Below are positions 2,811 through 20,774 of a stretch of 29,006 nt of DNA, piece by piece. The notes below the pieces were generated by a model. It worked only from the letters and a program-made list of their open reading frames with translations, made no database searches and was not told where the DNA came from. The stretch lies in assembly GCA_028285285.1 (NCBI GenBank), contig JANQPW010000048.1, forward strand, positions 1-29,006. The letters run 5' to 3'. The number at the start of each line of letters is the position of its first letter. Position 1 is the stretch's first letter. The DNA comes from Silvanigrellales bacterium (lineage in GTDB: Bacteria > Bdellovibrionota_B > Oligoflexia > Silvanigrellales > Silvanigrellaceae). A program made the position numbers and the translations under genes.

Positions 2811-4157
2811 TCAGCAGGCCGTGCGGAGAAAATCCGAAATGGACTTTGCTCGGCTTCTTTCGCAGGCGAGCCAAAACGCTTCTTCAAACCCGTAGGTTGT
2901 GGTGTAACGTATTTTGTGATCCACGGATCGATTCGTTTTCCTACGAATCAACTGCTCAAGGCGGAGACGATCCTGTTTCTGTGGTGGGTAACCATAGAGA
3001 CACTCCACAGCACCATTGCGTGCACAAAGCGCGAATGGGGGCAAAGAAGAAAGGCTCTGCGCCGCCTGATTCGCAAACTGGTCAAGGCTCAACCACTCAC
3101 CTGAGGCATCTTTGATCATCAGGCCTTCGCGCCCGAGAATGTGAATTCTCTCGCCCTCACGTTCTGCCCAATCGCCCGTGGAGTACCAGCCTTCGTGTTT
3201 GGTTCCACTAGTGAGATCAAGGAACTCTGCGCAGTTTTCAAGCTTGAGCTGGAGGATTCCACCCTTTTCTGGCACTTGAATCTGCAAATGAGGGAGGATC
3301 TTCCCGGCGAGCAAAACCCCAGGTCCTGCTTCGGTCAAACCATACCCTTCCACAAGGCTCCCAAACCGTTTTTCAGCTTCCTTCGCAACACTGTCAGAGA
3401 GCTGTGCACCGCCGGTGTGAACAATCATGTTCTTAAAATGAGCCGACTGAGGAAGCAGTCGGCAGAGCAACTCTATCTGCCGTGGCACGAGTGCAATGTG
3501 AGAGAATTTATTTCCGTGATTCAGCAGCGCCCAACGGAGGTCTTGCAGACTCCTTGAGGTTGAAAACACGAGTCTTTGGTGTGTCCAAAGCCCAAGAAGA
3601 ACATCAAGAACCAAACCAAATGCGTGCCACAGTGGCAGGCAAGAAAGTCTGAAGTTTCCACGTTGTTGAGTGCTTGTTTCCGGAAAAAGATTTTGGTTTG
3701 ATGCGTGCACCTGAAGCTGTTTCAGAATCACGCTTTGGGGAAGGAAGACCACTTTTCTAGATTCACTGCTTGTTCCACTCGTTAGGAGCACCAGCGAATA
3801 GGGCTCAGATGAAGAGGAGCGAGTTTCCGACAAAGTTTTAAAGTCACGGGTGATTCGGTCTTGCAATTGAGTGCAAGCTCCCGGAGCCATGGGCGCAAAA
3901 ACCTTCCCTTCGGCCAAACAGGCCAGAAAACCGCAAATTGCCCGAACGGGATCGCTTGCGTCAAGGAAGAAAATCGGGCTTTCTCGTTGCTTTTGAATGA
4001 GGGAAGTCAGTCTTTCAATCTCACGGGAGAGCTGCTCTGCGCAAACCGGCACAAGAGAGGAGTCTTCAATCAGGAAATGTGTTTCCTTTGCAAGCAGAGA
4101 TTCTCGCAAAGAAGTGTACAGGTCGCTCTGCGAGGAGAAATGTGGGGTTTCGTCCAT
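2811..4157 (-). CDS. AMP-binding acyl-CoA ligase, probable (hydroxy)cinnamate:CoA ligase for PYP chromophore attachment
   Basis: ANL motifs LLTSGTS, EGYGLTEAG, STGD, ILGR; 9 bp downstream of the ammonia-lyase, and the pair is divergent from pyp. Substrate assignment is from context. Confidence 0.8.
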   Translation of the reverse strand: MDETPHFSSQSDLYTSLRESLLAKETHFLIEDSSLVPVCAEQLSREIERLTSLIQKQRESPIFFLDASDPVRAICGFLACLAEGKVFAPMAPGACTQLQDRITRDFKTLSETRSSSSEPYSLVLLTSGTSSESRKVVFLPQSVILKQLQVHASNQNLFPETSTQQRGNFRLSCLPLWHAFGLVLDVLLGLWTHQRLVFSTSRSLQDLRWALLNHGNKFSHIALVPRQIELLCRLLPQSAHFKNMIVHTGGAQLSDSVAKEAEKRFGSLVEGYGLTEAGPGVLLAGKILPHLQIQVPEKGGILQLKLENCAEFLDLTSGTKHEGWYSTGDWAEREGERIHILGREGLMIKDASGEWLSLDQFANQAAQSLSSLPPFALCARNGAVECLYGYPPQKQDRLRLEQLIRRKTNRSVDHKIRYTTTYGFEEAFWLACERSRAKSISDFLRTAC

Positions 4158-4166
4158 ATGATCACC

Positions 4167-5588
4167 TTATTCCCAGGCACGTGGTGTTCCTGGCGTGTGG
4201 TTCTTCCAGGCTTCGAGAGACGAAGACACGGAGAACTCACCCTTGGACCTCATTGCACAGGCACGTGTTGCCACAAAGTGAGCGGCGTCTGAGACAACTT
4301 GAAGAAGGAGTTTGGACTCAGCAAATATGTTTAATTTCGACATTGTTGCTGGTAGCACATCTTGATTGTATGACTCGGCAGGGGCGCTCATGAGCGAGCT
4401 CGGTAGGTTCGTTCCCCGCAGCTGTTGCAAACAGGCGGAAACAAGCTGGTGCACCCCTTTCACATGATCCACGCCAATATGAGATTGGTGAACGCCACGA
4501 GTTCCTCTTTTGAGGTTTGGTGGCAGACCGTGGGAAAGCTCCGGCGTCACAATAAGGTGAATTTGCCGATCGAGGAGATCTGCAATTCTCAAGCAAGTGT
4601 CGCTCAGTAAGTCTACAGCAACGGCCAGTCTCGCAGTAAAGAAACGACCGCCGTGGTGAAAACCAGAATCGGTTACCACAGGGTTGTCGGCAATGTTCTC
4701 TGCTTCAGAGAGGACACGCTTTCGTGCGTCATCTAGGTTTTCTTTGGCGGCCGTTAAGATTTGTGGTGCACATCGTATGCTGTACCGTTCCTGCAAAGCG
4801 CTGGCTTCTTCTTCGGTGCTTGAAAGAGGAAAGTTTTCGCGGATGCGCTTCTCCGATTGGCGCAAAACTTGTGATATTTCCAGAAGGTTCCTGTCTTCAT
4901 GAGTTCCCGAAACCAGAAGGCTCGGCTCAAAGGCCTGGGAGTCAATAGCAAGGGCAACGGCATTTCGAGCTGTTATTTCAATAGCCTCTTGGAGAAATCT
5001 CTCAGTGAAGTTGGTGAGATGAACTGCAAGCGAGCACATCATTGAATTGGTGTTCACCAGGGCCAGTCCATCGCGTGGGCCGTAGGGCAATCCTCTCTTA
5101 AAGAGAGGCTGCAAAGCGTGACTCATTGATATGAGATCTCCGCTGGCTCCAAGGCTTCCCAAACATGGAACTGTGGGGAGTTTTTCCTCATTAGAAAAGG
5201 AAACAAGGGCATCGAAACTTTTTGGGTGAATACCAGAAAGGCCAAGTCCGAGCTTTTGGCACTGGAGGCGTATGCCTCTACGAACCACCTCCGATTCAAG
5301 GGGTTTCCCTTTGCCAACACTGAGAAACTCCATCAGCCCGTTTTGATGAGACTCCCAGTGTTGAGATTGTGCCGTTTCCAGAACATTGTGGCCAAAGTGA
5401 GTGTTGAGGCCGTAAACAGGGCTATTGTGAATGTGCTTTTCAAGTCTGTCGTAGCTCTCTTGAACTCTTTTTCTCTGAAGCGGGTGTGCAAACACGCTTG
5501 TTTCCGCACTTCCCAGTCGTACGACACTTGACCAGCTCAGTTTTCCTGCTGAGAGTTGGAGCTCTCGAATACTCGTCACCGCGCTCAT
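4167..5588 (-). CDS. MIO-dependent aromatic amino-acid ammonia-lyase (PAL/TAL family)
   Basis: VYGLNTHFG, GSLG-ASG-DL (MIO triad at 5139-5147), QERYSIRC, ADNP, GLPPNL, NQDV. Confidence 0.9.
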   Translation of the reverse strand: MSAVTSIRELQLSAGKLSWSSVVRLGSAETSVFAHPLQRKRVQESYDRLEKHIHNSPVYGLNTHFGHNVLETAQSQHWESHQNGLMEFLSVGKGKPLESEVVRRGIRLQCQKLGLGLSGIHPKSFDALVSFSNEEKLPTVPCLGSLGASGDLISMSHALQPLFKRGLPYGPRDGLALVNTNSMMCSLAVHLTNFTERFLQEAIEITARNAVALAIDSQAFEPSLLVSGTHEDRNLLEISQVLRQSEKRIRENFPLSSTEEEASALQERYSIRCAPQILTAAKENLDDARKRVLSEAENIADNPVVTDSGFHHGGRFFTARLAVAVDLLSDTCLRIADLLDRQIHLIVTPELSHGLPPNLKRGTRGVHQSHIGVDHVKGVHQLVSACLQQLRGTNLPSSLMSAPAESYNQDVLPATMSKLNIFAESKLLLQVVSDAAHFVATRACAMRSKGEFSVSSSLEAWKNHTPGTPRAWE

Positions 5589-5706
5589 TGGCCACCCGGG
5601 GAACTCATCCCATGACTTGTTGTTCTCTTCTTAGCCTACGGCGAGTGTAGATGGGCACCTCGGCAAACATTTCTTGTTTGAGAATTGGACGATGCTGGGG
5701 ATTGGC

Positions 5707-5733
5707 TAAAGTTTTCTTCGGAGAAGCCGTAAA
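5707..5733 (+). promoter_or_regulatory. Sigma28/FliA-like promoter of pyp
   Basis: TAAAGTTT-N11-GCCGTAAA versus extended consensus TAAAGTTT-N11-GCCGATAA; 49 bp before the pyp ATG. Confidence 0.6.
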
Positions 5734-5782
5734 GAGCTCTGACGTTGGAACCGCAAAAAATTGAATAATCTTGGAGGTCGAC

Positions 5783-6151
5783 ATGACATTTGTTTCATCG
5801 GATATTTTGGGCAAATTGGGAAGTCTTGACCGAGCGTCAGCTGATCGGGCCCCATTTGGAATTGTTAAGGTTGACAACGAAGGCAAGATTCTCCTGTACA
5901 ACAAGTGGGAATCTGAACTTGCTGGAATTTCGCCCGACTCTGCTGAAGGAAAGAACTTCTTTACTGATATTGCGCCGTGTACCAACAACAAGCTTGTGCG
6001 TGGGCGATTTCAATCGGGGATTGACTCCGGGAACTTGGACCTCGAAATCAACTACACGTTCACCTACAAAATGAGGCCAACCAATGTTGCCCTTCATTTG
6101 ATGCACGACAAGGTCACTTCTTCTAACTGGGTTTTCGTATCTAAGCGATAA
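5783..6151 (+). CDS. pyp: Photoactive yellow protein (short, stand-alone PAS)
   Basis: PFGIVKVD...LLYNKWES (Y42, E46)...GKNFFTDIAPCT (C69)...YTFTYKMRPT...WVFV; ATG 5783 preceded by GGAGG; next to chromophore-synthesis genes. Confidence 0.92.
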   Translation: MTFVSSDILGKLGSLDRASADRAPFGIVKVDNEGKILLYNKWESELAGISPDSAEGKNFFTDIAPCTNNKLVRGRFQSGIDSGNLDLEINYTFTYKMRPTNVALHLMHDKVTSSNWVFVSKR

Positions 6152-6163
6152 AAGGAGATTCCG

Positions 6164-6526
6164 ATGAGCGCGCAAGAGATCATACAATTGAGAGAAACGG
6201 TGTCCAATTTGGAAGAACAGCTTGTCTCTTTGTATGACCAGTTGAACGGCCAATCAATCGATGCGCTTCACACGACGATTGAGAGTCTCGAAGAGCAACT
6301 CATCTCTCTTTATCAGGAGCGTCAAGAGGAATCGGGTGTTGTTTTCTCTGAAACGGTGGAAAACCTCGAAGCCCAAGTGATTGCTCTCACTGATGAAAAG
6401 ATGGAGCTCGAGAGAAACGAAGGCCATTATCTCAGAGAGATTTCTTCTTTGAAGAACCGAGCCCGAGAGGTTGGTGCAGCCTTGTTTGAAGCAGCGATCT
6501 TCAATTCAACAGGGAAAGCTGCTTAG
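6164..6526 (+). CDS. Small acidic coiled-coil protein co-transcribed with pyp
   Basis: AGGAG RBS, 12 bp after the pyp stop; heptad-rich 120 aa. Confidence 0.8.
   Translation: MSAQEIIQLRETVSNLEEQLVSLYDQLNGQSIDALHTTIESLEEQLISLYQERQEESGVVFSETVENLEAQVIALTDEKMELERNEGHYLREISSLKNRAREVGAALFEAAIFNSTGKAA
6194..6391 (+). repeat. Three intragenic repeats at a 78-bp (26-aa) period
   Basis: ETVSNLEEQLVSLY (6194), TTIESLEEQLISLY (6272), ETVENLEAQVIALT (6350). Confidence 0.85.
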
Positions 6527-6529
6527 CTG

Positions 6530-7789
6530 CTACAAGCTGCCCACCTCGAGGTCAATGGGGTTGACTTGGTGACGTTCGCCAAACTCCCTATCACTCCAAA
6601 GAGTCCATCCTTTTTTCAACAGAACTCTTTCAAACTGCCGACCATTCACTTTGTTTTCTGTTGTCACTGTCTCTGAGTCTTCCCATCGGTGCCAGCGCGG
6701 GCAGTAGAGGATGCTGCGTTGGTTCGACTTTGGCCAGCGGTCGGGGTTGCCCAACCAGTCTCCCTCAAGAATCACAAAATGGCTCTGTTTAACCAGGTGG
6801 GATGGTAAGGTGAAGTGGCCGCAGCTTCCGGAAAACAGACACCGTTTTTGGAAGGAAGCAAATTGTTGGTCAGAAAGGGTGACAGCCAGCAACAGCTGGT
6901 TCAAGCGCTTGCGTTTGAGAAGTTGTGTCGACAGGCCGAGTCCAACACCGTCTTTAAAAGCGTCAACTCTCCCATTCCCCGCAACTATTGCAATGCGGTT
7001 GGCTCCGAAAGGCAGAAGACAAGTGGAGAGCAGGGGGCCAATTGGCCCGTCCGGAACAATTAAATTTCCAGAGATGAGAGAAAGCAATTCAAGTCCGCAG
7101 AGAAGTGTGTGTGGACTTGCTGTTGCCAGCACTACGGCTCGACAGTTCGTCATGAGTGACCGCACCTCTGCGGAGAGCGCTGCGGTTGTGCTGTTTTCAT
7201 GGCACTTATCTGCGAGGTAAGCCAGATCGGCCCGACCCTCTGAGTCGCAGATCAGAAAAAGAGCGTGACCTCGAAAGATGGTGCGTCGAATCAAGGCGTG
7301 TCCTTTGCCGGAGAGCCAGATGGGAGAGGGAATCTGCCTTTCACCGAGAACATTGGAGAGAAGAGCCGATGCGTGTAGTTCTCTCAAACTTCGGCTAAAG
7401 CGCTCGCTCGAGTGGAGCTTGCGCCAGTGAATTTGCGTCGCTTCCTTCTGTGCTTCGGCGCGGCCAGTCACGCGTTGGCCTCTGTGGACAGCTGCCAATG
7501 AGCTTTTCCAACCCTCTTTTGTGTCACAGGAGCTGTGGATTTCGACTTCGTGCCAGCTGTAGATATCCAATTCCGGCGGTTGTGATTCATCGAATTGAAA
7601 CTCTAAAAGTTCTGCCCATTGCAAAGCAGCGGAGAGATCTTTTGACCCCTCGTCTTGAGACTCCTGCAGCGATGTTATGGGAATGCCTTCGCAGACAACA
7701 GACGAGGAAAGCTCTTTTGAAGTTCTTTTTTGTGAGCAAAGCATGTGATTGTGATGAATGAAAACGAGCCAACGTTCCGCGGTCATCAC
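6530..7789 (-). CDS. Hypothetical protein with degenerate glutamyl-tRNA reductase (HemA)-like motifs
   Basis: 419 codons starting 4 bp after the kinase stop; ASALLSNVLGERQI and VVLATASPH resemble HemA motifs; no TCNR catalytic motif. Confidence 0.55.
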   Translation of the reverse strand: MMTAERWLVFIHHNHMLCSQKRTSKELSSSVVCEGIPITSLQESQDEGSKDLSAALQWAELLEFQFDESQPPELDIYSWHEVEIHSSCDTKEGWKSSLAAVHRGQRVTGRAEAQKEATQIHWRKLHSSERFSRSLRELHASALLSNVLGERQIPSPIWLSGKGHALIRRTIFRGHALFLICDSEGRADLAYLADKCHENSTTAALSAEVRSLMTNCRAVVLATASPHTLLCGLELLSLISGNLIVPDGPIGPLLSTCLLPFGANRIAIVAGNGRVDAFKDGVGLGLSTQLLKRKRLNQLLLAVTLSDQQFASFQKRCLFSGSCGHFTLPSHLVKQSHFVILEGDWLGNPDRWPKSNQRSILYCPRWHRWEDSETVTTENKVNGRQFERVLLKKGWTLWSDREFGERHQVNPIDLEVGSL

Positions 7790-7793
7790 GAAA

Positions 7794-9149
7794 CTAGCTC
7801 GCTAGCTGCAGGTTGGCAAGCGTAGCAAGGGGAATAAAGAAGCAAAAAAGGGTTCCCTTCCCTTTGTTTGACTCCACTTCTATCCGTCCTCCAAGTTTGT
7901 CCAATTCTTCCTTCACAGCCGAAGTTCCAACTCCTCGCCCAGAAGAGGTGGTCACCTGATCCCCTGTGCTCACTCCCTCTGAGAACAGAGCCTCCACGAG
8001 ATCGTCTTGAGTTTCAGATGGAAGTCCAGCGCCTCGGGCTTTTTCTGCAATTTTCTCCCAGTTGATTCCTCGGCCATCATCAGAGATTCTCACCACGAGA
8101 TCGTTTTCAGTCTCTTCGGCCGAGAACTTGACCAGCCCATCAGGAGACTTCCCGAGAGATTCCCTTTCGCTGGGCTCTTCAAGTCCGTGGTCGACAATGT
8201 TTCGAAGGATGTGGATGAGGGAGACCCAAAACCCTTTGAGGCCATCTGGCACACGAAGAGACTCACTCTGCGTCTCGACTTTTAGTTTCTTGGCTGAGTT
8301 TTCGGCAATTCTTGTGAGCTGAGAGGCGAGCCTCTTGAAGCGTATTGCGACAGGATCCATGGGCAATCGAAGCACTGAAACGAGTATTTCGCTCCAGTCT
8401 GTGTTCGCCATTAAGTGCATCACAAGGTCGTCATATTCTTGGCGGGTCATGAGGATCATGTCATTGTTTTCCATGAGGCCCTGGAATATCTCGGTTGTCT
8501 CTTTCCACTGCTTTTGAATGTCGATGAGTTCGTCACGAATGCCTTCGGGACTACTTCCTTGGAGTTTGTCTTCAACCGTGTGAACCGTCTTGACGAGGCT
8601 TTGAATATTGTAGCAGCCTGAGTTGCCCTTCACGGTGTGCAGTGTTTTTGCAAGGGAGCTTTTGTCGCTGATCTCTCCGAGGTTTTCGATTAGTTCGTTT
8701 GTTTCTTTGAGGAAGGCTTTAGAAACCTCAATGTCTTTTAGTAAAGACTCGACGATCTGCTCCCGCTCAGAGTTTTGGGGTGTTGAGGAGGTCTCCAGTT
8801 TGAGGCGAACTGCATATCCTGCAAGGGTGCCTCCAGCGTTATCGGGCTGGAAATCGAGTGTGTAGCTTTGTTCACCCAACTTCGTGCGAGTGGGAAGCTC
8901 TGTGATCTGCATTCCGAAGAGTTCAAAATCTTGAACCCAGGTCGACAACAGAAACTTGAGTTGCTCTACTTCTGCGGGGTTCTCAGCAATCACGTCGGCG
9001 ATGTGGGTGTCGAGAAGGCCGCTCGACTCTGAAAAGCGTGATCTGAGGAGATGTTTTCCGCTCTCGCTCATGCGTTCGGTCAGGCGCCCGTCTGGCTCGC
9101 AGTAATAGATCACATCACCAAAAAGCTCGTAAAGCGAGGCGCTGGACAT
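7794..9149 (-). CDS. Soluble CheA-like histidine kinase (PAS-like N-terminus, Hpt, HATPase_c; no CheW domain)
   Basis: Hpt LHTVKGNSG; N-box HILRNIVDHGLE; ISDDGRGI; FSEGVST...SGRGVG; protein ends just after the ATPase domain; no hydrophobic transmembrane stretch seen. Confidence 0.88.
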   Translation of the reverse strand: MSSASLYELFGDVIYYCEPDGRLTERMSESGKHLLRSRFSESSGLLDTHIADVIAENPAEVEQLKFLLSTWVQDFELFGMQITELPTRTKLGEQSYTLDFQPDNAGGTLAGYAVRLKLETSSTPQNSEREQIVESLLKDIEVSKAFLKETNELIENLGEISDKSSLAKTLHTVKGNSGCYNIQSLVKTVHTVEDKLQGSSPEGIRDELIDIQKQWKETTEIFQGLMENNDMILMTRQEYDDLVMHLMANTDWSEILVSVLRLPMDPVAIRFKRLASQLTRIAENSAKKLKVETQSESLRVPDGLKGFWVSLIHILRNIVDHGLEEPSERESLGKSPDGLVKFSAEETENDLVVRISDDGRGINWEKIAEKARGAGLPSETQDDLVEALFSEGVSTGDQVTTSSGRGVGTSAVKEELDKLGGRIEVESNKGKGTLFCFFIPLATLANLQLAS

Positions 9150-9333
9150 CGTGACACTCCAGGTTCAATTTTAAAAAATTCTTGTGGAGTATTTTAACAC
9201 ACAGGCTCAGGGCGTTTCGCTCCTGCTCGCATTTTTTAATCTTGTGATTTTGCCCAAAAAAAGCACAACTTCTTCAAATTATTGAGAGCCTTCCGCTGCA
9301 TAAATTTTGCCGTTGACGTAAAAATGACAGATG

Positions 9334-13594: not shown

Positions 13595-14386
13595 ATGACC
13601 GAAGCCATTCAGCTCAACCCTGGGTTTTACATCTATGCAATAGCTCTCGGGGATGTTGCTATTGACTACGGACCCGTTGGGTTGAGGAGTTTTGAGGTCA
13701 CGAGTTTTTCCAGTGAGGGCCTCACGGCAATTGTGAGTAAATGCCCTGGCCACAAGATTCGTCCTGAGCGCAGAAATCTAAAAGCCCACCATGAAGTTTT
13801 GAAGCGTCTCGTTGCCGATCACGCTATTCTTCCAATGGGGTTTGGGTTGTGTGCTCCTTCTGAACAGTCGCTTTGTGGGCTCTTGAGCGACAACGCAGAA
13901 AAGCTGAAAAAAAACCTGGAAGCGATTGAGGGCTGCCGGGAATGGGGAGTGACGGTCAAGCTTGCAAATGGGGACCCTGCGCAGTGGATACTGGAGGTTG
14001 ATCCGGAGCTAGAAGAAAAGCGTAACGAGATCTTGCAATCTGGACACCAAATGTCGCGCGACGACCGGATGAATTTCGGGCAGCAGATCGCCCGTCAACT
14101 GGAGCAGCAGAGAGCCGCCTATGAGCTTGAAGTTCGAAAGTCGCTTGAGTCATGTTGTCGAGAGGTGCGCACCATTGACCTTAAGGCAGATGCTGAAATC
14201 TGCGGCTTTGCACTTCTTGTTGAGAAAGAAAATGAAGCCAAACTAGAAGAGAAAATCAGTGCCATGGCAGCGGGTCTTCCGGAAGCATTTGCTGTCTCTT
14301 TTTCAGGCCCTTGGGCGGCTCACAACTTTGTCGAAGTCCAAATGGATGCCAGCGCTCTTGAAGCGCAGGAGGGGGAGTCATCATGA
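13595..14386 (+). CDS. gvpF: GvpL/GvpF-family gas vesicle protein
   Basis: YIYAI, LKAHHEVL, ILPMGFG, SGPWAAHNFV; immediately before gvpG. Confidence 0.88.
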   Translation: MTEAIQLNPGFYIYAIALGDVAIDYGPVGLRSFEVTSFSSEGLTAIVSKCPGHKIRPERRNLKAHHEVLKRLVADHAILPMGFGLCAPSEQSLCGLLSDNAEKLKKNLEAIEGCREWGVTVKLANGDPAQWILEVDPELEEKRNEILQSGHQMSRDDRMNFGQQIARQLEQQRAAYELEVRKSLESCCREVRTIDLKADAEICGFALLVEKENEAKLEEKISAMAAGLPEAFAVSFSGPWAAHNFVEVQMDASALEAQEGESS

Positions 14387-14616
14387 TCGTTGTTGATAGT
14401 GTTCTCCTATTCCCGATGAAAGGTCTCCTCTGGCTAGCCGGCAAGATCAACGAGTCGGTGGCGCAGGATACAAAAGACCAAATCACAGAGGTCAAAAACA
14501 GGTTGTCGGAGATCTACTTGCTGGTTGAAACAGGTCAAATGAGTGAAGAAGAGTTTGACAAGCAGGAGTCTCAGCTCTTGGAAAAGTTAGATGAGCTTGA
14601 AGGGAGCTCTGATTGA
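14383..14616 (+). CDS. gvpG: Gas vesicle protein GvpG
   Basis: LLFPMKGLLWLAGKI...ETGQMSEEEFDKQESQLLEKLD; ATGA overlap with gvpF. Confidence 0.88.
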   Translation: MIVVDSVLLFPMKGLLWLAGKINESVAQDTKDQITEVKNRLSEIYLLVETGQMSEEEFDKQESQLLEKLDELEGSSD

Positions 14617-16610
14617 CTGATCGGGAACAAGCTCCGTTCAGTGCCGAAAAACTCAGAAGTAAGATCCTTGTGTTTTGCGGCAAAGGGGGGGTTGGAAAGA
14701 CCACTGCAGCGACTGCTGTGTCAAATCATCTTGCTCAGCACGGGGCCTCCGTTCTGCTTGTGAGCTTTGATCCTGCACACTCCGTGCAGGATAGGCTCAA
14801 GGGCGTTCACTATGAGTCTGCACGCTTGCAGACCCTCGAGTTTAACGCTTCCACTGAACTCGAGAGCTTCAAAGAGAAGTGGTTAGAAACAATCGAATAT
14901 GTTGCGGAACATGGGACCTTTTTTGAAAGGCAAGATGTTCAGGAGCTCTTTTCCCTTTCATTTCCGGGAATGGACGAGATGCTTGCATTTCTTTACCTTG
15001 GCCGCGCAATTGAAGAACTGAATGAAGGCGCTTACGACACTATCTGCATTGATACCGCTCCCACGGGCCATCTTCTAACTCTCCTTAAAGCAGAGGAAAC
15101 ACTCCTCCGGTGGTTTTCGACCTTTGGGAGCCTTCTTGGTAAAGAAGAGGAAATGTTTGCGCGATTTGGAAATCGAGGAAATTCGGCTCAGAAGTACCAG
15201 TCTGGGGCGTCAATTCAGATAGAGCAGCAAATTCATGATATTCAGCAAACCGGGGAGTGGCTTCATCGAAAAGCAGAGTTTGTGCTGGTTTCCCAGGCGG
15301 CCCCAATTGTTGTTGACGAAACAATTCGGCTTTGGCTTCAGCTGAGTGAGCAGAAGTTCATCGTCCAGTCTTGTATTGTCAACGATTTTCCACGGCACGA
15401 AGAGGGTTGTTCTCTTTGTCACTCAAATTTTGTTGAGGCAAACACGGAGGCCGAGAGACTTATGTCGGCCTTAGGAGCAGACTTGTCGTTCTTCATTCAA
15501 GCTTCTGGCGCTGCCGACAAGGGAGAGTTTGTTGAGAACTACGTGTCTCACCTCTTAGGCCCGCTCGACCATTCCGCTGAACGGAAATCCGCTGCCGTAC
15601 AAAAGAAACAAGTCCACGACTCTCGCGATGATCGAGTTGAGCTTTGCCACCGTCAGCTCTTTTTGTCGGTTGGTAAGGGGGGAGTTGGCAAAACGAGTTG
15701 GGCTGCTGCCATTGCCGTTGCCCTCGCGCAAAGTGAGGCAGGCCCATCTGTCCTTGTTATTTCGACCGATCCTGCCCACTCACTTGGAGATAGGTTTGGC
15801 GTTGCTTTGGGGAAGAAGCCTCAAACTCTGGAGTTTGAATTTAGTAGTGCAAGCGTCGATGCAATGGAAGTTGATCCCGCTCAGGAACTCGCTTCACTGA
15901 GGCAGAGCTTGGGTCGTCACATTGAAGAAGCATTCGGCGAGAAGTTGAACGGTTCGTCGTTTTCTCTGCGACATGACCAGGAGGCCATTCTTAGCCTTCT
16001 TGAGTTGACTCCCCCTGGCTTGGATGAGCTCATGGCACTGCTTGTTCTTTCAGATGCTTTTGAGCAGGGTTCTTACGATGCAATAGTTGTGGATTCTGCC
16101 CCCTCTGGCCACCTCGTGAGGCTTCTTTCAATGCCCGAAATCATCGAAGATTGGCTGAAGACGATCTTCTCAATCCTTCTCAAGTACAAAAATATTTTCT
16201 CTTCGCTTGGCCTCAATAAAGAGCTCTTTCTTCTCAAACGGAGAGTGAGGGCTCTTCGCGAGCTTATTCAAGATCCAACGCGATGTGGGGCAATCATGGT
16301 CACTCGGGCAACAGATATGTGCCTTGAGGAATGTCGTGATCTTCACAAAAATCTCCAAAAGCTTGGCACGGCGGTATCGGGTCTACTCATCAATCAGGTT
16401 CGTCACCGAGACTCCTGCAACATCTGTGATGACATGTTCAAAAGTGAATCACAAATCATTGACGCCTACCTGCAAGAGTTTGCGCCGCTGCAGCCTAAAG
16501 TTGTTCATAGTATCTATAGGAAAGACTGTGAACCAAAAACGAGCAAGGAGTGTTTCCTCATCGAAAAGCTGGTCGACCTTATCGAAATTCAGGGCGGCCA
16601 CAAGGGCTGA
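14613..16610 (+). CDS. Tandem ArsA/Get3 (TRC40)-family ATPase
   Basis: Two GKGGVGKT, (S/F/T)DPAHS and D(T/S)AP(T/S)GH motif sets; a CxxC in each half. Confidence 0.9.
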   Translation: MTDREQAPFSAEKLRSKILVFCGKGGVGKTTAATAVSNHLAQHGASVLLVSFDPAHSVQDRLKGVHYESARLQTLEFNASTELESFKEKWLETIEYVAEHGTFFERQDVQELFSLSFPGMDEMLAFLYLGRAIEELNEGAYDTICIDTAPTGHLLTLLKAEETLLRWFSTFGSLLGKEEEMFARFGNRGNSAQKYQSGASIQIEQQIHDIQQTGEWLHRKAEFVLVSQAAPIVVDETIRLWLQLSEQKFIVQSCIVNDFPRHEEGCSLCHSNFVEANTEAERLMSALGADLSFFIQASGAADKGEFVENYVSHLLGPLDHSAERKSAAVQKKQVHDSRDDRVELCHRQLFLSVGKGGVGKTSWAAAIAVALAQSEAGPSVLVISTDPAHSLGDRFGVALGKKPQTLEFEFSSASVDAMEVDPAQELASLRQSLGRHIEEAFGEKLNGSSFSLRHDQEAILSLLELTPPGLDELMALLVLSDAFEQGSYDAIVVDSAPSGHLVRLLSMPEIIEDWLKTIFSILLKYKNIFSSLGLNKELFLLKRRVRALRELIQDPTRCGAIMVTRATDMCLEECRDLHKNLQKLGTAVSGLLINQVRHRDSCNICDDMFKSESQIIDAYLQEFAPLQPKVVHSIYRKDCEPKTSKECFLIEKLVDLIEIQGGHKG

Positions 16611-16642
16611 AAAAGCTCTGCCATTTGAATGAGGAAGCCATT

Positions 16643-16885
16643 TTGAGCTCAGCAGAGAGAGGGAAGAAGATTGTGCAAGCGGAACAGAACTCTCTGCTGG
16701 ATGTCATCGATTCTGCCTTAGACACTGGAGTCGCAGCTCGTGGAGAAATCGTCTTGAGCGTTGCAGACATTGATCTTGTTTACATCAGTCTTGGTCTTGT
16801 GATTTCTGAGTTTGGCAAGCTCCAGAATGCCAGCACAACGCCAAAGAAACAGGAAGATTTGCCCCAGGGCGAGTCAGCAGTATGA
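16643..16885 (+). CDS. GvpA/J/S-family minor gas vesicle protein (GvpS/GvpM-like)
   Basis: SLLDVIDSALDTGVAARGEIVLSVADIDLVYISL; start uncertain (TTG 16643 after GAGGA, or GTG 16673). Confidence 0.8.
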   Translation: MSSAERGKKIVQAEQNSLLDVIDSALDTGVAARGEIVLSVADIDLVYISLGLVISEFGKLQNASTTPKKQEDLPQGESAV

Positions 16886-17160
16886 CCGACGCGAAGGATA
16901 CCCAAACTCGTGTTGATACAGAAAAGCTTGCAAATGGACTTGGTGGTTTAGCCCTGACAATTGTCAAGCTTCTGCATGAGTTGATGCAGCGGCAGGCGTT
17001 GAAGCGATATGAAAGAGGAGAGCTCAGCGAGGAGGAAATCGAGCGGGCTGGAAGGACTTTTCAAGCCCAGGCACAGGAATTGGCTCGGTTGTGCGATCTT
17101 TTTGGGGTCAAGGAAGAGGAGCTCAACCTCGACTTGGGACCGCTCGGCAAACTCATGTAG
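16882..17160 (+). CDS. gvpK: Gas vesicle protein GvpK
   Basis: GLALTIVKLLHELMQRQALKRYERGELSEEEIER...LNLDLGPLGKL. Confidence 0.93.
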   Translation: MTDAKDTQTRVDTEKLANGLGGLALTIVKLLHELMQRQALKRYERGELSEEEIERAGRTFQAQAQELARLCDLFGVKEEELNLDLGPLGKLM

Positions 17161-17180
17161 CAAACACTGGAGAAAGACCC

Positions 17181-17525
17181 ATGACGCATAAAACTGTGAC
17201 GACCTCAACCGGTGGTTCGAATCTTGTCGATGTGATCGAACGTGTGCTCGACAAAGGTATTGTTATTGCGGGTGATATCAAGGTCAATCTCGTGGACATT
17301 GAACTTCTGACCATTCAGATTCGTCTTGTCGTCTGTTCGGTAGACAAGGCGGTCGAAATGGGAATGGATTGGTGGAAAAATGGATCGAGCTTTCTTTCCA
17401 CAGATCAAAATGAAAAGGACGAGAAGAGTCTTGTTGAGAGAATTGAGCGTCTTGAGAGCTCAATGAGACAAGATCAGGCAGCAGTGGCGAGTGCGAAACC
17501 ATTTTTAGCTGATGCGCAGAGCTGA
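17181..17525 (+). CDS. gvpJ: Gas vesicle protein GvpJ
   Basis: NLVDVIERVLDKGIVIAGDIKVNLVDIELLTIQIRLVVCSVDKAVEMGMDWW; ATG 17181 after GGAGA. Confidence 0.88.
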   Translation: MTHKTVTTSTGGSNLVDVIERVLDKGIVIAGDIKVNLVDIELLTIQIRLVVCSVDKAVEMGMDWWKNGSSFLSTDQNEKDEKSLVERIERLESSMRQDQAAVASAKPFLADAQS

Positions 17526-17533
17526 GGTTAGCC

Positions 17534-18376
17534 ATGGAAAAACAAAGCGTTACTTCTCCCGTGTTGAAGTCTCCTCGCTTGGAGCGGGAACAAAGCCTGT
17601 GGATGCTCAAGAGTCTTGCGCTGACCTCCTCAAAGGACCAACGAGAGAAAATTGAGGTGGTGTCGCGTGAGTTGGGCCACTCGGTGTTTCCTTTTTCTTG
17701 CGGTTCCCAAATGTGTGGCTTGGTCATCTGCGCAGCTGAAGAAAGGCAGGAGTGGGTAAGAGACGACATCGATGAGCTTATGAAGAATATCGATTGGATT
17801 GCTCCCCGCCTGCAGCAACACGCAGGTGTCTGCAACACCATTCACAGCATCGCCCCTTCCATTCCCATCGGTTTTGGTAGCCTCTTTTCCTCGGTGGAGG
17901 CTATGACAAGCAAGGCTCAATCCGTTTTTTCTGGCCTTGATCAAAACAAGCTCTGGGAGCTCAGTGGACTTGAATGGGGTTTGACCGTGAAAAGAGCAGC
18001 AGCGACGGACACCGTTGCAACACCCAGAGAGTCTGCGGCTCACAACGCTGTTTCGGGCAGTTGCTATTTTCAGTCTTTGGCACGAAAAAAGAGACATCGG
18101 CAAAATGAGAGTGAGATAGCAGAAGACGTGCTAGATGGTGTGCGGAACATTCTTGCGAAGTGTGGATTTCCCACCAATTCTCTTTCAGTCAGAGAAGATT
18201 GGCAAAACGCAAAGTCGAAGGAGCGAGTGGTTGGTCGATTTGCGACGCTGGTGCCAAGAGACAATCAGAACTTTCGAACTGACTGCGCCCGAGCCTTCGA
18301 GGAACTCGCTCGTGAAAAGAGTTCATGCTTTCATTTTGAATGGAATGGTCCTTGGGCCCCGTTCAGCTTTGTGTGA
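17534..18376 (+). CDS. Second GvpL/GvpF-family protein
   Basis: WIAPRLQQHAGV, SIPIGFGSLF, EWGLTV, YFQSLARKK, NGPWAPFSFV. Confidence 0.82.
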   Translation: MEKQSVTSPVLKSPRLEREQSLWMLKSLALTSSKDQREKIEVVSRELGHSVFPFSCGSQMCGLVICAAEERQEWVRDDIDELMKNIDWIAPRLQQHAGVCNTIHSIAPSIPIGFGSLFSSVEAMTSKAQSVFSGLDQNKLWELSGLEWGLTVKRAAATDTVATPRESAAHNAVSGSCYFQSLARKKRHRQNESEIAEDVLDGVRNILAKCGFPTNSLSVREDWQNAKSKERVVGRFATLVPRDNQNFRTDCARAFEELAREKSSCFHFEWNGPWAPFSFV

Positions 18377-18383
18377 CTCTTTG

Positions 18384-19241
18384 TCACGCGGCTTTTGACG
18401 AGATCGCAGTATAGATTTGCCCCAAGGATGGTTCGTGCGCAAATGGTTCAAGAGCCTCTAGAATCATCGACACAAGTGATCCCGCATAGGTGATTTCTGC
18501 GTCAAACTCGCCTTTGGCCATTTTATAGCCCATTGCGGTGTTGATGATGAACCAGTTTGAGCGGAGTGCTCCACAGATCTGGGAAGCCATAAAAGCAACT
18601 TCCTCGTTGTCTTCTACGGGCTCGAACATTTTTCGCACAAACCCGATCCAGCGCAGGCCCATCTCTTGGAGAGCCGCGTGAGTGGCTGGATCTTCTTTAG
18701 TGTCTCCAATCAGCTCGGAGAGACGACTCGCAAAGGCGTCGTTGGTGAGAGAAGCGATCACTCTTTCTTTGAGGTTGCTATCTGTTGCAGACTCCTGCCC
18801 CGCTGAGTCACCCCCTTGAATAGACTGAAGGTCGCTGAGTAAACGCTCCCCTTTCTGAACAAAAGCTTCGACCTGGTTGATCATCGCATTGATCTTGTCA
18901 TCTGTACTAGACATGTGGCCTCCTCGGTTTGCCTGATCCAATTTTTTTTGTGTCCAATCACAACACATTTCGTAAAGCTTGCCCTGAACACAATGTTCAA
19001 AAAATGTTTCAGCCGCAGCCTCAACAAGGCTATCCAGCTCGGCTAAACCGAGAATCTCCTGACGTTCCCTCTCAGACAACTCAGACGTTGGAAGTGAATT
19101 GTCTTTAAGAGAAGCAGCCATTTGGAGATGCCGATAAGCCGCATCTCGGAATGCCCTGTGTTGAGAAGTCAACCTCACACTCCCCGAATATTGCATTTGC
19201 ATCTGACCTTCGGACGGTGGTGGGAAAACTTGAGGAGTCAT
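18384..19241 (-). CDS. Hypothetical helical protein; may start at ATG 18914
   Basis: 285-codon ORF convergent with the gvp operon (7-bp gap); strong GAGGAGG RBS before an internal ATG at 18914. Confidence 0.6.
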   Translation of the reverse strand: MTPQVFPPPSEGQMQMQYSGSVRLTSQHRAFRDAAYRHLQMAASLKDNSLPTSELSERERQEILGLAELDSLVEAAAETFFEHCVQGKLYEMCCDWTQKKLDQANRGGHMSSTDDKINAMINQVEAFVQKGERLLSDLQSIQGGDSAGQESATDSNLKERVIASLTNDAFASRLSELIGDTKEDPATHAALQEMGLRWIGFVRKMFEPVEDNEEVAFMASQICGALRSNWFIINTAMGYKMAKGEFDAEITYAGSLVSMILEALEPFAHEPSLGQIYTAISSKAA

Positions 19242-19427
19242 TGGTTTTGGGTGTCGAGCTTTGTTCGGAAACTCCTGCAGCGAGTCCCAAGCTAGGGGAA
19301 CAGTAGAAGAAATTTTCCTTGTGAACCATTCATATGCGGAGTGAAGAAAGTGGCCACTGGAGAGATTTTCCGTGGTTTACAATTGTGGTGTGCATCAACC
19401 CATCAACTCGCGCGAAGGAATGCGAAA

Positions 19428-20774
19428 ATGAGTATTCTTGAACGTTCGGTCTCTGAAAGTGAATTCTCGATCTCCTTCTCTGAAGGAATGCCCACGGCAG
19501 TTGGGCTGTTGACCGAAGCATCTCAAATTGATCTGGATTTGGCGAACGACCGTGCCAAACCCCTTTCGCTCAGTGGGTTGAGGGGCGCTTCGTGGGCTGG
19601 CCTCGACACATTGGTGAGAGTGCTGAAATCGGAGGAACTTTGGCAGGGGAAGCTTACGGAAGTGCCCATTGGCCTCTATGAGCAGTTGCTGTCCATTGAT
19701 GGGGAGTGGGCGAAGGAGCACACACAGAGCGTGCTTGCGGGAAGCTCTCGGTTGGGCCAGACCGACTCAGGGAGGCTGATGGACACGTCGGAAGTCATCA
19801 TGGCCTGTAAAAAAATGAAGAGCTTAGGCCCTTCATGTGATCTTTTGCTGGTCCAGCAGGCCATTCATGGCGAAGGCCTCATGAACCTCAAAGATATGAA
19901 AGAGTTTGAAGGAGAGGTTGCTCGTTACATTTGCTTTGTGGCAACGATACTATCGGCTTGCTCCTTGTCATTTGCTGCTCTTTCCTTCCGTGTTCTTTCC
20001 CAAGTGCTGGGAATACTTCGCATTCGAAAGGCCCTCCTTCTTTTTGGTGGCCCAAGCGCGCGATTTAGTGCTGAAGCCGACTTCAATGAGGCAAGGCTCA
20101 TTCATCGTTTGAAGAAGCTTGAAGGTGTCTCAGATGTTGTGCGGAACATGTCACTGGGCCTTGGAAGCTCTCTCTTCGGCGCGCTTTCTCAGAGCCCGTC
20201 GATTCGCCCCATTCAATTGCTTGGAATTCTTCGTTCCTTTTCGAAGACTAATGAAGCCCTGAAATCTGCTGTTGAACCGCTGGAGACGGTTGGAAGCCAG
20301 ATCATTGCTTCCATCGATCATTTCCTTGACCCAGCCCCAGTTCAAGAGGCCTGGATGCGGCTTCAAAGCTCAGAGGTTTCAAGCCGCCAGAAAGATGGAA
20401 TTTCGAGAATGCTTTCGGTTTGGGGTCAGCGCTCAGATGCAACGTGGAACGACCTTTGCGGTCAAATCAATGGTGTTGTTGAAAACCTGCCGGAAGCGGG
20501 CATGAATCTCATTGTTGAACTGCAGCAAATCGACACGCTTCGGCAAGTTCTGGAGCATCGCATGAGTGAAGCAAGCGCTCTCACGGAGAACTTTTCTCAG
20601 TTGTCGAATGTTCAGGTCTTTGAGCGGGAGTTTGAGGGGTCGTGGGGAATTAAAGAAACAAGCAGATGGCTTGTGACGAATCTTGAGAAGTCGGTGTTTG
20701 AGAGCTTCTTTCCCGACTCAGACCTGCACACCCAGGGTGATCTTGTTTCTGGAAGTGATGTGGTGTTCTTTTAG
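19428..20774 (+). CDS. Hypothetical signalling protein: STAS-like N-terminus and CheZ-like C-terminus
   Basis: LQQIDTLRQVLEH (DxxxQ) and terminal GSDVVFF; N-terminal IDLDL...SLSGLRGASWAGL loosely STAS-like; ATG 19428 after GAAGGA (ORF track starts at 19341). Confidence 0.55.
   Translation: MSILERSVSESEFSISFSEGMPTAVGLLTEASQIDLDLANDRAKPLSLSGLRGASWAGLDTLVRVLKSEELWQGKLTEVPIGLYEQLLSIDGEWAKEHTQSVLAGSSRLGQTDSGRLMDTSEVIMACKKMKSLGPSCDLLLVQQAIHGEGLMNLKDMKEFEGEVARYICFVATILSACSLSFAALSFRVLSQVLGILRIRKALLLFGGPSARFSAEADFNEARLIHRLKKLEGVSDVVRNMSLGLGSSLFGALSQSPSIRPIQLLGILRSFSKTNEALKSAVEPLETVGSQIIASIDHFLDPAPVQEAWMRLQSSEVSSRQKDGISRMLSVWGQRSDATWNDLCGQINGVVENLPEAGMNLIVELQQIDTLRQVLEHRMSEASALTENFSQLSNVQVFEREFEGSWGIKETSRWLVTNLEKSVFESFFPDSDLHTQGDLVSGSDVVFF

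Follow-up and report, generated by a model that had tools for sequence, protein, structure and literature searches.

A photoactive yellow protein and CheA-type kinase cassette flanking a gas-vesicle operon in a non-photosynthetic Silvanigrellales bacterium: a candidate light-responsive buoyancy island

Introduction

The gene for photoactive yellow protein (pyp) adjoins gas-vesicle (gvp) genes in Rhodobacter capsulatus SB1003 and Loktanella sp. SE-62 (Kyndt et al., 2004, as cited in PMC3646047), and an earlier note on the DNA described here had rightly pointed to the Rhodobacter case. A candidate partner of the Rhodobacter photoreceptor is the PYP-binding protein PBP (RCAP_rcc01067), a small protein encoded beside pyp (Kim et al., bioRxiv 10.1101/2021.06.01.446672). 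In Leptospira, clade-B PYPs adjoin sensor-less chemoreceptors, an arrangement likened to CetA/CetB (Xing, Gumerov and Zhulin, 2022; PMC9664959). That survey counts fewer than five Bdellovibrionota genomes with PYP and does not mention gas vesicles; its gene-neighbourhood passages mention no partners resembling the CC120 and PAD proteins introduced below.

Here we describe an island of about 16 kb (positions 2811-19241 of the window, that is, of the whole 29,006-nucleotide stretch analyzed) that joins PYP, pigment enzymes, signalling genes and a gvp operon. Relative to the published pyp-gvp loci it is new in three respects: the PYP belongs to a different clade, the host to a different lineage, and a kinase cassette is attached. 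Light-controlled buoyancy is a reasonable, if provisional, reading of this locus.

Host and Genomic Setting

The host is a freshwater, non-photosynthetic bacterium represented by a fragmented bin (1059 contigs, 83.5% complete, 2.2% contamination). Placement by a marker gene, as the earlier note had advised, puts it in the order Silvanigrellales (Oligoflexia), with RpoB 83% identical to that of a Silvanigrellales MAG; the figure is 79% for Spirobacillus and Pigmentibacter and 67% for Oligoflexales. The suggestion of Bdellovibrionota-like content and a possible predator is not upheld, as RpoB does not point to Bdellovibrio; Oligoflexia comprise pigmented freshwater heterotrophs and animal-associated bacteria (PMC12321486) and are not known as bacterial predators. 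No reaction-centre gene (Photo_RC) was found in the 83.5%-complete genome, in keeping with the reported lack of photosynthesis genes. The genome holds a single copy each of PYP, PAD, CC120 and gvp, and all four are on this contig.

The left flank (2-1105) is of mobile type. It holds a weakly matching IS66 TnpB/transposase fragment (2-331, plus strand; Pfam TnpB_IS66, E 0.002; PHROGs transposase, 2.5e-4) and a toxin-antitoxin pair on the minus strand, made up of an HTH antitoxin-like gene (475-804; PHROGs HTH regulator, 1e-7) and a RelE-like toxin gene (794-1105; PHROGs RelE-like toxin, 4e-5). No homolog of orf215 (2137-2784) was found in 30 relatives. On the right, orf477 (19341-20774, plus) is native flank and lies outside the system: it belongs to a lineage-specific family, with ORFs of similar length and 23-29% identity in family-level relatives that carry neither pyp nor gvp. 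PYP-linked genes flank the gvp operon on both sides, because the domain we call PAD, encoded beyond its distal end, occurs in 60 of 83 PYP loci; the genes farther out are native or of mobile type.

The Photoreceptor and Its Chromophore Enzymes

As the earlier note observed, a ligase and an ammonia-lyase gene on the minus strand are divergent from pyp on the plus strand; together the three would make up a complete kit for a p-coumaroyl-bearing PYP. The AMP-binding enzyme (2811-4157; PF00501, 1e-17) is a candidate p-coumarate ligase (pCL) whose homologs, 28-37% identical, adjoin pyp in 14 of 80 loci. The aromatic amino-acid ammonia-lyase (4167-5588; PF00221, 8e-69; MIO motif ASG) is a candidate tyrosine ammonia-lyase (TAL), with homologs beside pyp in 39 of the 80. 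Its selectivity position (His89 in R. sphaeroides TAL) is Phe here, Tyr in the closest relatives and His in Gemmatimonadales-type loci, and since TALs have His at this position, chromophore supply is uncertain.

The photoreceptor itself (5783-6151, plus; 122 aa) scores 120 bits against TIGR02373, under the 143 cut-off, and aligns without gaps to the solved H. halophila PYP in the PDB (E 1.5e-27). Tyr42, Glu46, Cys69 and Met100 are kept, while Thr50 is replaced by Ala and Arg52 by Ile. The best of 312 homologs is 69% identical, and the protein is of the Leptospira-like type (59-61% identity to Leptospira PYPs vs. about 42% to alphaproteobacterial plasmid PYPs).

Sigma-28-like promoters had been reported before both pyp and gvpA, and the first of these stands. 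A sigma-28 (FliA)-type promoter-like site (5707-5733, plus), 50 bp upstream of the pyp ATG, matches TAAAGTTT-N11-GCCGATAA with 2 mismatches in 16 positions and is the sole site in the window with three or fewer; the window-wide count of such sites is not above that of shuffles, and it has no conserved counterpart ahead of pyp in 19 other loci. The genome carries a fliA gene scoring over the curated cut-off. Before gvpA, no such site with four or fewer mismatches is present in the spacer.

The Signalling Genes

The partner gene noted beside pyp encodes CC120 (6164-6526, plus), a coiled-coil protein whose translation contains three repeats of about 16 aa (xLExQLxSLY) with a 26-aa period. Homologs adjoin pyp in 21 of 80 loci from several phyla, including L098 (49% identity). 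It is followed on the minus strand by orf419 (6530-7789), an orphan that is translationally close to the kinase gene (4-bp gap) and presumably co-transcribed with it. No match to orf419 was found in Pfam, NCBIfam or Atlas; its GC by codon position is gene-like, an independent Logan contig also carries the gene call, and its single-sequence AF2 model is poor (pLDDT 38.7). The genes of roughly 410 aa found after kinases in L188 and L191 are unrelated to it.

The kinase, HK451 (7794-9149, minus; PF01627 and PF02518, HATPase_c), is a soluble CheA-type protein with a PAS-like domain (aa 4-118), an HPt/P1 domain (124-220, with His171), P3-like helices (236-284) and a P4 ATP-binding domain (289-450). 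It has no P2, no P5/CheW domain and no membrane segment, and its matches to CheA NCBIfam models are confined to P4. The AF2 model (pLDDT 89.7) has T. maritima CheA P3P4 and P4 as its top Foldseek matches, and 36 homologs keep His171, the N box and the G boxes without exception.

Beyond the gvp operon, orf285 (18384-19241, minus) ends in about 125 aa (18387-18761) that form the unnamed PYP-associated domain, PAD, marked by invariant Trp, Asn, Tyr, Gly and Glu residues. A first phmmer round recovered it in L022, L074, L029 and L098 (E <= 3e-5); after iteration, which brought the tally to the 60 of 83 PYP loci, it usually lies directly after pyp. Neither orf285 nor its PAD matches a Pfam or NCBIfam family, and no homologs of the N-terminal 160 aa were found. 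The CheZ-like protein that the earlier note had placed on this far side could not be recognized, since neither orf285 nor orf477 matches any Pfam or NCBIfam family, CheZ included in the case of orf477; of the proposed kinase and phosphatase-like pair, only the kinase is retained.

The Gas-Vesicle Operon

The description of a soluble CheA-like kinase (HPt and HATPase_c, no membrane segment) divergent from a full gvp operon is borne out: the two are separated by a 273-bp intergenic region (9150-9422), which shares with the TAL/pyp spacer no operator-like word beyond A/T-rich 9-mers. The operon (9423-18376, plus) comprises 13 co-oriented, mostly overlapping genes, among them gvpA (9423-9644), the small unnamed orf169 (9783-10292), gvpN (10289-11359), the small unnamed orf113 (11356-11697), a Cdc48-like double AAA+ ATPase (11694-13550; two PF00004 domains), gvpF (13595-14386), gvpG (14383-14616), an ArsA-like double ATPase (14613-16610; PF02374), a gvpJ-like gene (16550-16885), gvpK (16882-17160), a second A/J-like gene of gvpA/J/M type (17091-17525) and a gvpL/F-like gene (17534-18376). 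Its Pfam matches are PF00741 (three genes), PF07728, PF06386 (two genes), PF05120, PF05121, PF00004 and PF02374. Neither a receiver domain nor a transcription factor, nor any other output gene, is encoded in the island.

Recurrence of the Cassette

Genes for PYP, the coiled-coil protein, PAD and the kinase also occur together in other loci. HK451-subfamily kinases adjoin PYP in L098 (kinase 43% and PYP 69% identical to those here), L187 (PYP directly upstream) and L104, and adjoin PAD in L106 and L187; four Myxococcota loci have more distant, full-length matches to the kinase 2-4 kb away from pyp. Neither gvp nor PYP lies near any of 80 more distant homologs of the kinase from soil metagenomes.

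In L104, a gvp operon, a kinase, a coiled-coil repeat protein and PYP follow one another on a single strand. Its kinase (P0370), 90 bp after the gvp operon, is the second-closest full-length HK451 homolog (E 3.7e-79), its 404-aa coiled-coil protein contains many copies of the CC120 motif, and its PYP is 61% identical to ours; the gvp products are 78% (GvpA), 43% (AAA), 44% (GvpK) and 37% (GvpN) identical. The contig is unrelated (67% GC vs. 50% here), and because both GC and gene order differ, the kinase-gvp linkage arose or was kept independently. These are the only two gvp-linked examples of the cassette found. No gvp gene lies within 10 kb of pyp in any of the 80 related PYP loci, none of the 15 PYP-carrying genomes tested has a GvpA-family gene, and gvp is missing in 129 of 131 genomes across the phylum. 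Since the 80 loci and the 15 genomes are without gvp, the cassette in most cases has a different output. The synteny of pyp, kinase and gvp that the earlier note proposed to survey is found in L104 and not in the related loci at large. Its relay from PYP to the kinase gains from the kinase-PYP adjacencies, and its gvp output from L104 and from the PYP-linked genes on both sides of the operon; the link to flotation is not general, and a predatory host is not supported.

Possible Function and Alternative Explanations

We put at about even odds a reading of the island in which the PYP-kinase cassette is wired to the gvp operon on one accessory island and confers light-responsive depth. The L104 linkage, the bracketing of the operon and the Rhodobacter and Loktanella precedent speak for it; the lack of an output gene in the island, the related PYP loci without gvp and the lack of a promoter or operator motif common to pyp and gvpA speak against it. 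Blue light would bring PYP to its signalling state, which could reach the kinase with CC120 and PAD serving as adaptors, or could act directly on its PAS-like N-terminal domain, altering autophosphorylation at His171 of the HPt domain. The phosphoryl group might then pass to a receiver protein encoded outside the island and so influence gvp expression or assembly, such that the depth of the cell in the water column would track light.

A possible but rather less probable account is that the cassette governs swimming or other behaviour through a CheY-like receiver, as in phototaxis, and that it travels with gvp since both position the cell, with no direct wiring. Phototaxis via chemoreceptors is the view published for clade-B PYPs (PMC9664959), the kinase is of the CheA type, and related cassettes sit among chemotaxis genes: in the Bacteriovoracaceae locus L003 the PYP, coiled-coil and PAD genes lie inside a cheA-mcp-cheW-cheB operon, an MCP accompanies the cassette in L099 and CheX in L098. 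In L003 and L041 one protein combines PAD with a CheW-like domain, and the L003 arrangement with its fusion points to taxis. The flagellar-type site before pyp but not gvpA and the 15 PYP genomes without gvp fit as well. Yet HK451 lacks P5, and therefore the usual docking to receptor arrays; the window contains no che or mcp gene; the operon is bracketed by PYP-linked genes; and kinase-gvp adjacency recurs in the unrelated lineage of L104 in a different gene order.

Mere chance adjacency of two accessory modules in a recombination-prone, mobile-element-rich region, with orf419 and orf285 perhaps decaying, seems improbable. The transposase fragment and toxin-antitoxin pair, the absence of pyp and gvp from all 40 relatives, and the lack of homologs for orf419 and the N-terminal half of orf285 are in its favour, but the island genes are all intact and their codon statistics gene-like, the key residues for catalysis and chromophore are retained, composition is uniform across island and genome, and the same combination appears again in L104. 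Still more improbable is that the contig was mis-binned from another organism in the sample. The fragmentation and contamination of the bin, the relatives without pyp and gvp, and a right-flank ceramidase that is rare among relatives would suit such an origin; against it, the contig is typical of the genome in tetranucleotide composition (r 0.965 to the bin mean, rank 90 of 144), its GC falls inside the range of the bin, and homologs of orf477 occur in 9 of 18 family-level relatives, with a paralog elsewhere in the bin on a different contig.

Comparison with Known Systems

In Serratia sp. ATCC 39006, the gas-vesicle cluster includes the regulators gvrA-gvrB-gvrC. GvrB, a classical HisKA histidine kinase, is partnered by an NtrC-type regulator from the same cluster; gas vesicles are not produced without the kinase, and the system has no photoreceptor. 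Physical linkage of a kinase gene to the gvp cluster is common to both systems, whereas the kinase here is CheA-type, has no linked regulator and shares its island with PYP. Compared with T. maritima CheA (4xiv, 1b3q, 1i58), HK451 has the phospho-accepting His of HPt/P1 in an H-T-x-K-G-N motif, a P3-like helical hairpin and a P4 that is 30-35% identical (TM 0.8-0.88 on target); unlike CheA, it is soluble, lacks P2 and the CheW-like P5, carries a PAS-like domain at its N-terminus instead, and has no che genes nearby. As for the Leptospira clade-B proteins, a single-domain PYP is thought to signal to an adjacent chemotaxis-type pathway, and loci related to the island carry MCP, CheA and CheW genes. 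PAD proteins resemble PBP in size (130-170 aa) and in their position directly after pyp; PBP, described as N-terminal helices followed by beta-strands, is set apart by that description from PAD, which looks helical from sequence. Finally, as in R. capsulatus and Loktanella, a stand-alone PYP and chromophore enzymes adjoin a gvp cluster, and in both cases the gene neighbourhood suggests light-regulated buoyancy. Those hosts are alphaproteobacteria, R. capsulatus being a phototroph, whereas the present host is a non-phototrophic member of the Oligoflexia; the present locus adds a kinase of the CheA type, a protein of coiled-coil repeats and PAD, and no PAD turned up in the two alphaproteobacterial loci examined.

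Organization of the Locus and Its Host Lineage

The window comprises the entire contig C475, the longest in a genome bin that is split into 1059 contigs (4.85 Mb in total, 83.5% complete, 2.2% contamination), and was mapped from its ORF listing together with family scans. An AMP-binding ligase gene (2811-4157, minus strand; family scan) and an aromatic ammonia-lyase gene (4167-5588, minus strand; PF00221, 8e-69) both adjoin pyp (5783-6151, plus strand; ORF listing and family scan), as the earlier note had proposed, and pyp is followed by CC120, which encodes a 120-aa coiled-coil protein (6164-6526, plus strand; ORF listing). Next come orf419 (6530-7789, minus strand), which has no family match, and the kinase gene HK451 (7794-9149, minus strand; Hpt and HATPase_c), which a divergent spacer of 273 bp (9150-9422) separates from gvpA. 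The gvp block consists of thirteen genes in the same direction, overlapping for the most part (9423-18376, plus strand), beyond which lie orf285 (18384-19241, minus strand), whose C-terminal 125 residues form a PYP-associated domain that we call PAD, and orf477 (19341-20774, plus strand), a member of a family of 450-500-aa proteins.

At the left end of the contig lie a weak transposase fragment of IS66 type (2-331) and, beside it, overlapping genes for a RelE-like toxin and an HTH antitoxin-like protein (475-1105, minus strand). No homolog of orf215, also on the left flank, was found in relatives; the left end of the accessory block is not defined within the contig. On the right, orf477 homologs of equal length (23-29% identical) occur in nine of 18 family-level relatives, including relatives without pyp and gvp, and a paralog lies elsewhere in the bin. 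Since orf477 is lineage-native, the accessory block ends between orf285 and orf477. Members of the orf477 family, for which Pfam has no match, turned up in four other genera out of eight searched within the bacterial family, and a genome often encodes two or more. Further to the right (25315-29006), a neutral ceramidase gene (PF04734, 2e-147), present in only two of 30 relatives, is followed by two genes of the same orientation. In tetranucleotide profile the contig fits the bin mean (r 0.965, rank 90 of 144), and in GC content it stays inside the bin range; this fit, together with the homologs and paralog of orf477, argues against mis-binning. Composition is moreover uniform across the accessory block, so any transfer is not recent.

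RpoB of the bin (contig C976) is 83% identical to that of a 'Silvanigrellales bacterium' MAG, 79% to those of Spirobacillus cienkowskii and Pigmentibacter, and 67% to that of Oligoflexales, which places the organism in the order Silvanigrellales of the Oligoflexia. The suggestion of a predator is not supported, as this group is not known to include bacterial predators; the Silvanigrellales are heterotrophs of fresh water, pigmented and pleomorphic, and include a Daphnia pathogen (PMC12321486). The reported absence of photosynthesis genes holds for Photo_RC, which was not found in the 83.5%-complete bin, and a fliA gene was detected in the genome. Among 40 relatives, neither PYP nor a GvpA-family gene was found, and only two of 131 genomes of the phylum, this one included, carry GvpA-family genes; on that count, Oligoflexia would gain its first gas-vesicle cluster with that of the window.

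The Gas-Vesicle Operon

The gvp operon that had been claimed is present: the shell protein GvpA and GvpF/L, GvpG, GvpJ/M, GvpK, and GvpN all have Pfam matches above cut-offs, and GvpO and GvpC have no family match in the window. The order runs gvpA, orf169, gvpN, orf113, a double AAA+ ATPase, gvpF, and gvpG, and continues with an ArsA-like double ATPase, a gvpJ-like gene, gvpK, a second gvpA/J-like gene, and a gvpL/F-like gene. The positions of orf169 and orf113, after gvpA and after gvpN respectively, are those of unnamed genes in L104, a compared locus with a gvp cluster of its own, with which they have no sequence similarity; a relation of either to PAD was considered and rejected, both being unrelated to the PAD profile. 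The pattern reported for pyp-gvp islands of alphaproteobacteria, where the small gene preceding gvpN is related to genes of the pyp operon, does not hold in the window. The L104 cluster contains a counterpart, at 43% identity, of the Cdc48-like double AAA+ ATPase (11694-13550; 618 aa) and none of the ArsA/Get3-like double ATPase (14613-16610; 665 aa; PF02374, 5e-92). Both ATPases could act as chaperones for hydrophobic Gvp proteins.

PYP and Its Candidate Chromophore Enzymes

In PYP, Cys69 is the thioester site for p-coumarate, and Tyr42 and Glu46 hydrogen-bond the chromophore phenolate. The window protein aligns without gaps to the solved H. halophila PYP (PDB; E 1.5e-27, offset +3), its Cys66 corresponding to the chromophore-attachment residue Cys69, which is invariant in 20 homologs. 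Tyr42, Glu46, Cys69, Tyr98, and Met100 are retained; Thr50 is replaced by Ala and Arg52 by Ile, and subfamily-wide these positions hold Ala and either Ile or Val. The match to TIGR02373 spans residues 2-121 of 122 and scores 120.4 bits, under the equivalog cut-off of 143.05, which we read as marking a divergent clade rather than a non-member. This PYP also turns up in the assembly of run SRR20820731. A total of 312 homologs was recovered, the best of them 69% identical, from Bacteriovoracaceae, 'Bdellovibrionales', Erythrobacter, Leptospira, Ignavibacteria, Planctomycetota, Gemmatimonadales, and Myxococcota.

The lyase has an ASG MIO motif. At the position of the selectivity residue His89 of the R. 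sphaeroides TAL it carries a PAL-like Phe (codon 5325-5327, minus strand), where the closest PYP-linked lyases have Tyr and those of the Gemmatimonadales type have His. The lyase is therefore a candidate TAL, and p-coumarate in consequence a putative chromophore.

HK451 Is CheA-Like but Not a CheA

An AlphaFold2 model of HK451, built on an alignment of 36 homologs (mean pLDDT 89.7), predicts a PAS-like domain of beta2-alpha4-beta3 topology (residues 4-118), a four-helix HPt domain (124-220; PF01627), a helical hairpin corresponding to P3 (236-284), and a P4 ATP-binding domain (289-450). The best Foldseek matches are the P3P4 unit of T. maritima CheA (4xiv, E 2.6e-13) and many CheA P4 structures, to which the model compares with TM 0.8-0.88 on target and 30-35% identity. 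His171, which lies in the motif LHTxKGN, is identical in all 36 homologs, as are the N and G boxes. HK451 accordingly has the P1 HPt domain with its phospho-accepting His, P3, and P4 of a CheA, and it fails two defining features. A CheW-like P5 domain is missing (no PF01584 match, and the model stops approximately 10 residues past P4), as is a CheY-binding P2 domain (no PF07194 match, and no space between the HPt domain, which ends at 220, and P3, which begins at 236). The absence of P5 makes HK451 CheA-like, not a CheA. The soluble CheA-like kinase divergent from the gvp operon that had been described is thus present, with Hpt and HATPase_c domains and no membrane segment.

The neighboring orf419 returned no match in a family search or Atlas look-up, and its AlphaFold2 model, computed without an alignment, is unusable (pLDDT 38.7). 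Its candidacy as a HemA pseudoenzyme found no support from family or profile matches, and it is unrelated to the ~410-aa genes that lie behind kinases in two compared loci, L188 and L191.

A Cassette of PYP Neighbors in Other Genomes

We searched 80 genome loci with related PYPs, including 10-kb flanks, with all proteins of the window. The lyase was found beside 39 of the 80, CC120 beside 21, the ligase beside 14, and an HK451-like kinase beside eight; gvp genes occurred within these flanks at none. A first search round with the last 125 residues of orf285 brought weak matches to small ORFs next to pyp (E <= 3e-5 at four loci: L022, L074, L029, and L098), and the iterated search converged on a family found at 60 of 83 PYP loci. 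PAD, approximately 120 aa in length and with no Pfam family, is usually encoded by a gene of 130-170 aa directly 3' of pyp. Five residues never vary in its alignment (Trp, Asn, Tyr, Gly, and Glu), and each of them is found in orf285 (E 1.7e-27 against the PAD HMM). PAD in the window does not adjoin pyp and is situated 12 kb from it, beyond the gvp operon, so that the operon has PYP-associated genes on either side. A complex prediction for PYP and PAD, from their respective alignments, scored 0.01, which is evidence neither for nor against binding.

PAD also forms the N-terminus of ~490-aa proteins, and two of four tested have a CheW-like end. Such fusions of ~470-490 aa lie by pyp in a Bacteriovoracaceae MAG (L003:10801-12219) and in Sphaerotilus natans (L041:11898-13376). 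A PAD-CheW fusion would tie a PYP partner physically to chemoreceptor arrays. The order at the Bacteriovoracaceae locus is pyp, CC, PAD-CheW, lyase, ligase, cheA, mcp, cheW, and cheB, and at another locus (L099) an MCP gene lies downstream of the cassette; near the plasmid-borne PYPs of Niveispirillum and Indioceanicola, gvp, PAD, and the kinase were not found. The cassette is probably a general light-input module, and its usual neighbors are taxis genes.

When 1.8 billion representative proteins were searched exhaustively with HMMER, a small subfamily emerged that has the full HK451 architecture, including the N-terminal domain and a conserved C-terminal tail. At L098, a PAD gene that diverges from pyp comes after the kinase (P0369 type, 43% identical); the PYP there is the closest known (69% identical), and the CC protein is 49% identical. 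A second kinase of L098 (PAS-HPt-HATPase, 743 aa) and then a CheX-family gene lie at 1-2777. At L187 (kinase P0374), PYP (58%) stands between a weak CC-like gene and the kinase, which a PAD protein follows, and at L106 (P0372) the kinase has a PAD gene after it. In a sister branch of the kinase subfamily, at L188:6418-9579 and L191:7019-10028 (P0373 and P0396), the kinase always precedes a 56-58-aa gene and then a ~410-aa gene, and neither PYP nor gvp is present; the ~410-aa proteins of these loci share 62% identity and match no Pfam family.

The Link to Gas Vesicles

For the earlier note, pyp/kinase and gvp blocks that are unlinked in relatives would refute a light-buoyancy system, and the synteny survey divides on this point. 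Linkage recurs at L104 and L105, where the gvp genes run HSP20, Cdc48-like AAA, gvpF, x, gvpA, x, gvpN, x, gvpF, gvpG, gvpJ, gvpK, and gvpJ (x, unnamed gene). These are followed, 90 bp past gvp, by the kinase (P0370; 35% identical over its full length, E 4e-96), a 404-aa protein of many CC120-motif repeats, and a PYP (61% identical), all on one strand, with the contig ending 170 bp after PYP. GC content (67% at L104 vs. 50% in the window) and gene order both differ, which indicates that gvp, kinase, CC, and PYP are held together in two unrelated lineages. Beyond these loci, to the absence of gvp from the 80 PYP loci can be added that none of 15 PYP-carrying genomes tested, including four Myxococcota with PYP-adjacent kinases, has a GvpA-family gene, and that none of 80 more distant homologs from a JGI metagenome scan with the kinase alignment has gvp or PYP nearby. 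The gvp link of the PYP cassette is not general.

The regulatory sequences were searched in the same regard. The window was scanned for sigma-28 (FliA) sites of the form TAAAGTTT-N10-12-GCCGATAA, membership being defined by TAAAGTTT-N11-GCCGATAA before both pyp and gvpA. The sigma-28-like promoter that had been described for pyp was recovered as one strong site with two mismatches (5707-5733, 50 bp 5' of the pyp ATG); that described for gvpA was not, as its spacer has no such site with <=4 mismatches. The total of matches in the window equals the shuffled expectation, and the motif was absent 5' of pyp at 19 other loci, so the pyp site of the window is not conserved. The TAL-pyp and kinase-gvpA spacers have in common only A/T-rich 9-mers as possible operators.

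Proposed Mechanism and Its Rival

The genes of the locus are intact, catalytic and chromophore residues are retained, and PYP, CC, PAD, and kinase recur together; we consider it likely that these four constitute one signaling cassette. Lit-state PYP would alter the autophosphorylation of HK451, either via CC120 and PAD or via the PAS-like head of the kinase, and the phosphoryl group might then pass from His171 to a receiver encoded elsewhere, which would govern gvp. This mechanism is weakest at the receiver, which is missing. The CheZ-like protein that the earlier note had assigned to the far side was not substantiated, as neither orf285 nor orf477 has a Pfam (including PF04344) or NCBIfam match at E <= 0.01, and Atlas look-ups for both were uninformative.

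The main rival holds that the cassette steers motility and is merely co-located with gvp on one island. The taxis genes that usually neighbor the cassette, and the PAD-CheW fusions, are what such a role would look like, and the rarity of the gvp link is in keeping with it; against it stand the joining of the cassette to gvp in two lineages and the bracketing of the operon by PYP-associated genes in the window. We put the chances that the cassette output in this organism is gas-vesicle production at about even. Gas-vesicle output is also one part of a wider, tentative reading, which we regard as possible though rather improbable: that PYP, coiled-coil repeat protein, PAD, and PAS-HPt-CheA-like kinase are the long-sought modular route downstream of stand-alone (clade-B-type) PYPs, feeding in most bacteria into chemotaxis arrays via PAD-CheW fusions, and rewired to gas vesicles here and in an unrelated high-GC lineage, so that a heterotroph without photosynthesis, possibly associated with zooplankton, would set its vertical position by light. 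Overall, the observation of the earlier note is partly confirmed and its interpretation partly supported.

Significance and Comparison With Known Systems

Light-regulated buoyancy has until now been discussed for phototrophs and haloarchaea, and if the proposed output is true it would reach a heterotroph. For work with gas vesicles as acoustic reporters, a compact module leading from light to gas vesicles could be of interest as well. The idea of light-controlled buoyancy is not new, as the pyp-gvp neighborhood was published in 2004 for R. capsulatus; pyp lies beside gvp also in Loktanella SE-62 (PMC3646047). What is new is the lineage, Oligoflexia being otherwise without gvp, and the PYP clade; the P5-less CheA-type kinase within the unit; and two families without a name, CC-repeat and PAD, that are conserved widely as neighbors of PYP. 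The product of a gene neighboring pyp, PBP, binds Rc-PYP in vitro (bioRxiv 10.1101/2021.06.01.446672), and PYP signaling partners are still called unidentified in recent papers (PMC13250908, PMC9664959). The locus and its relatives offer three candidate partners, namely the repeat coiled-coil protein, PAD (in view of its wide distribution at PYP loci), and the P5-less CheA-type kinase with a PAS-like head, all of which are expressible and testable in vitro, as well as one concrete candidate output in gas vesicles.

Compared with L098, the locus of the closest PYP homolog, the window differs in that L098 has a candidate CheY-P phosphatase of the CheX family whereas the window does not. The neighborhood survey in PMC9664959 agrees with our finding of taxis genes as neighbors of PYP; gas vesicles go unmentioned in it, whereas in the window and in L104 the gvp genes are themselves neighbors of the cassette.
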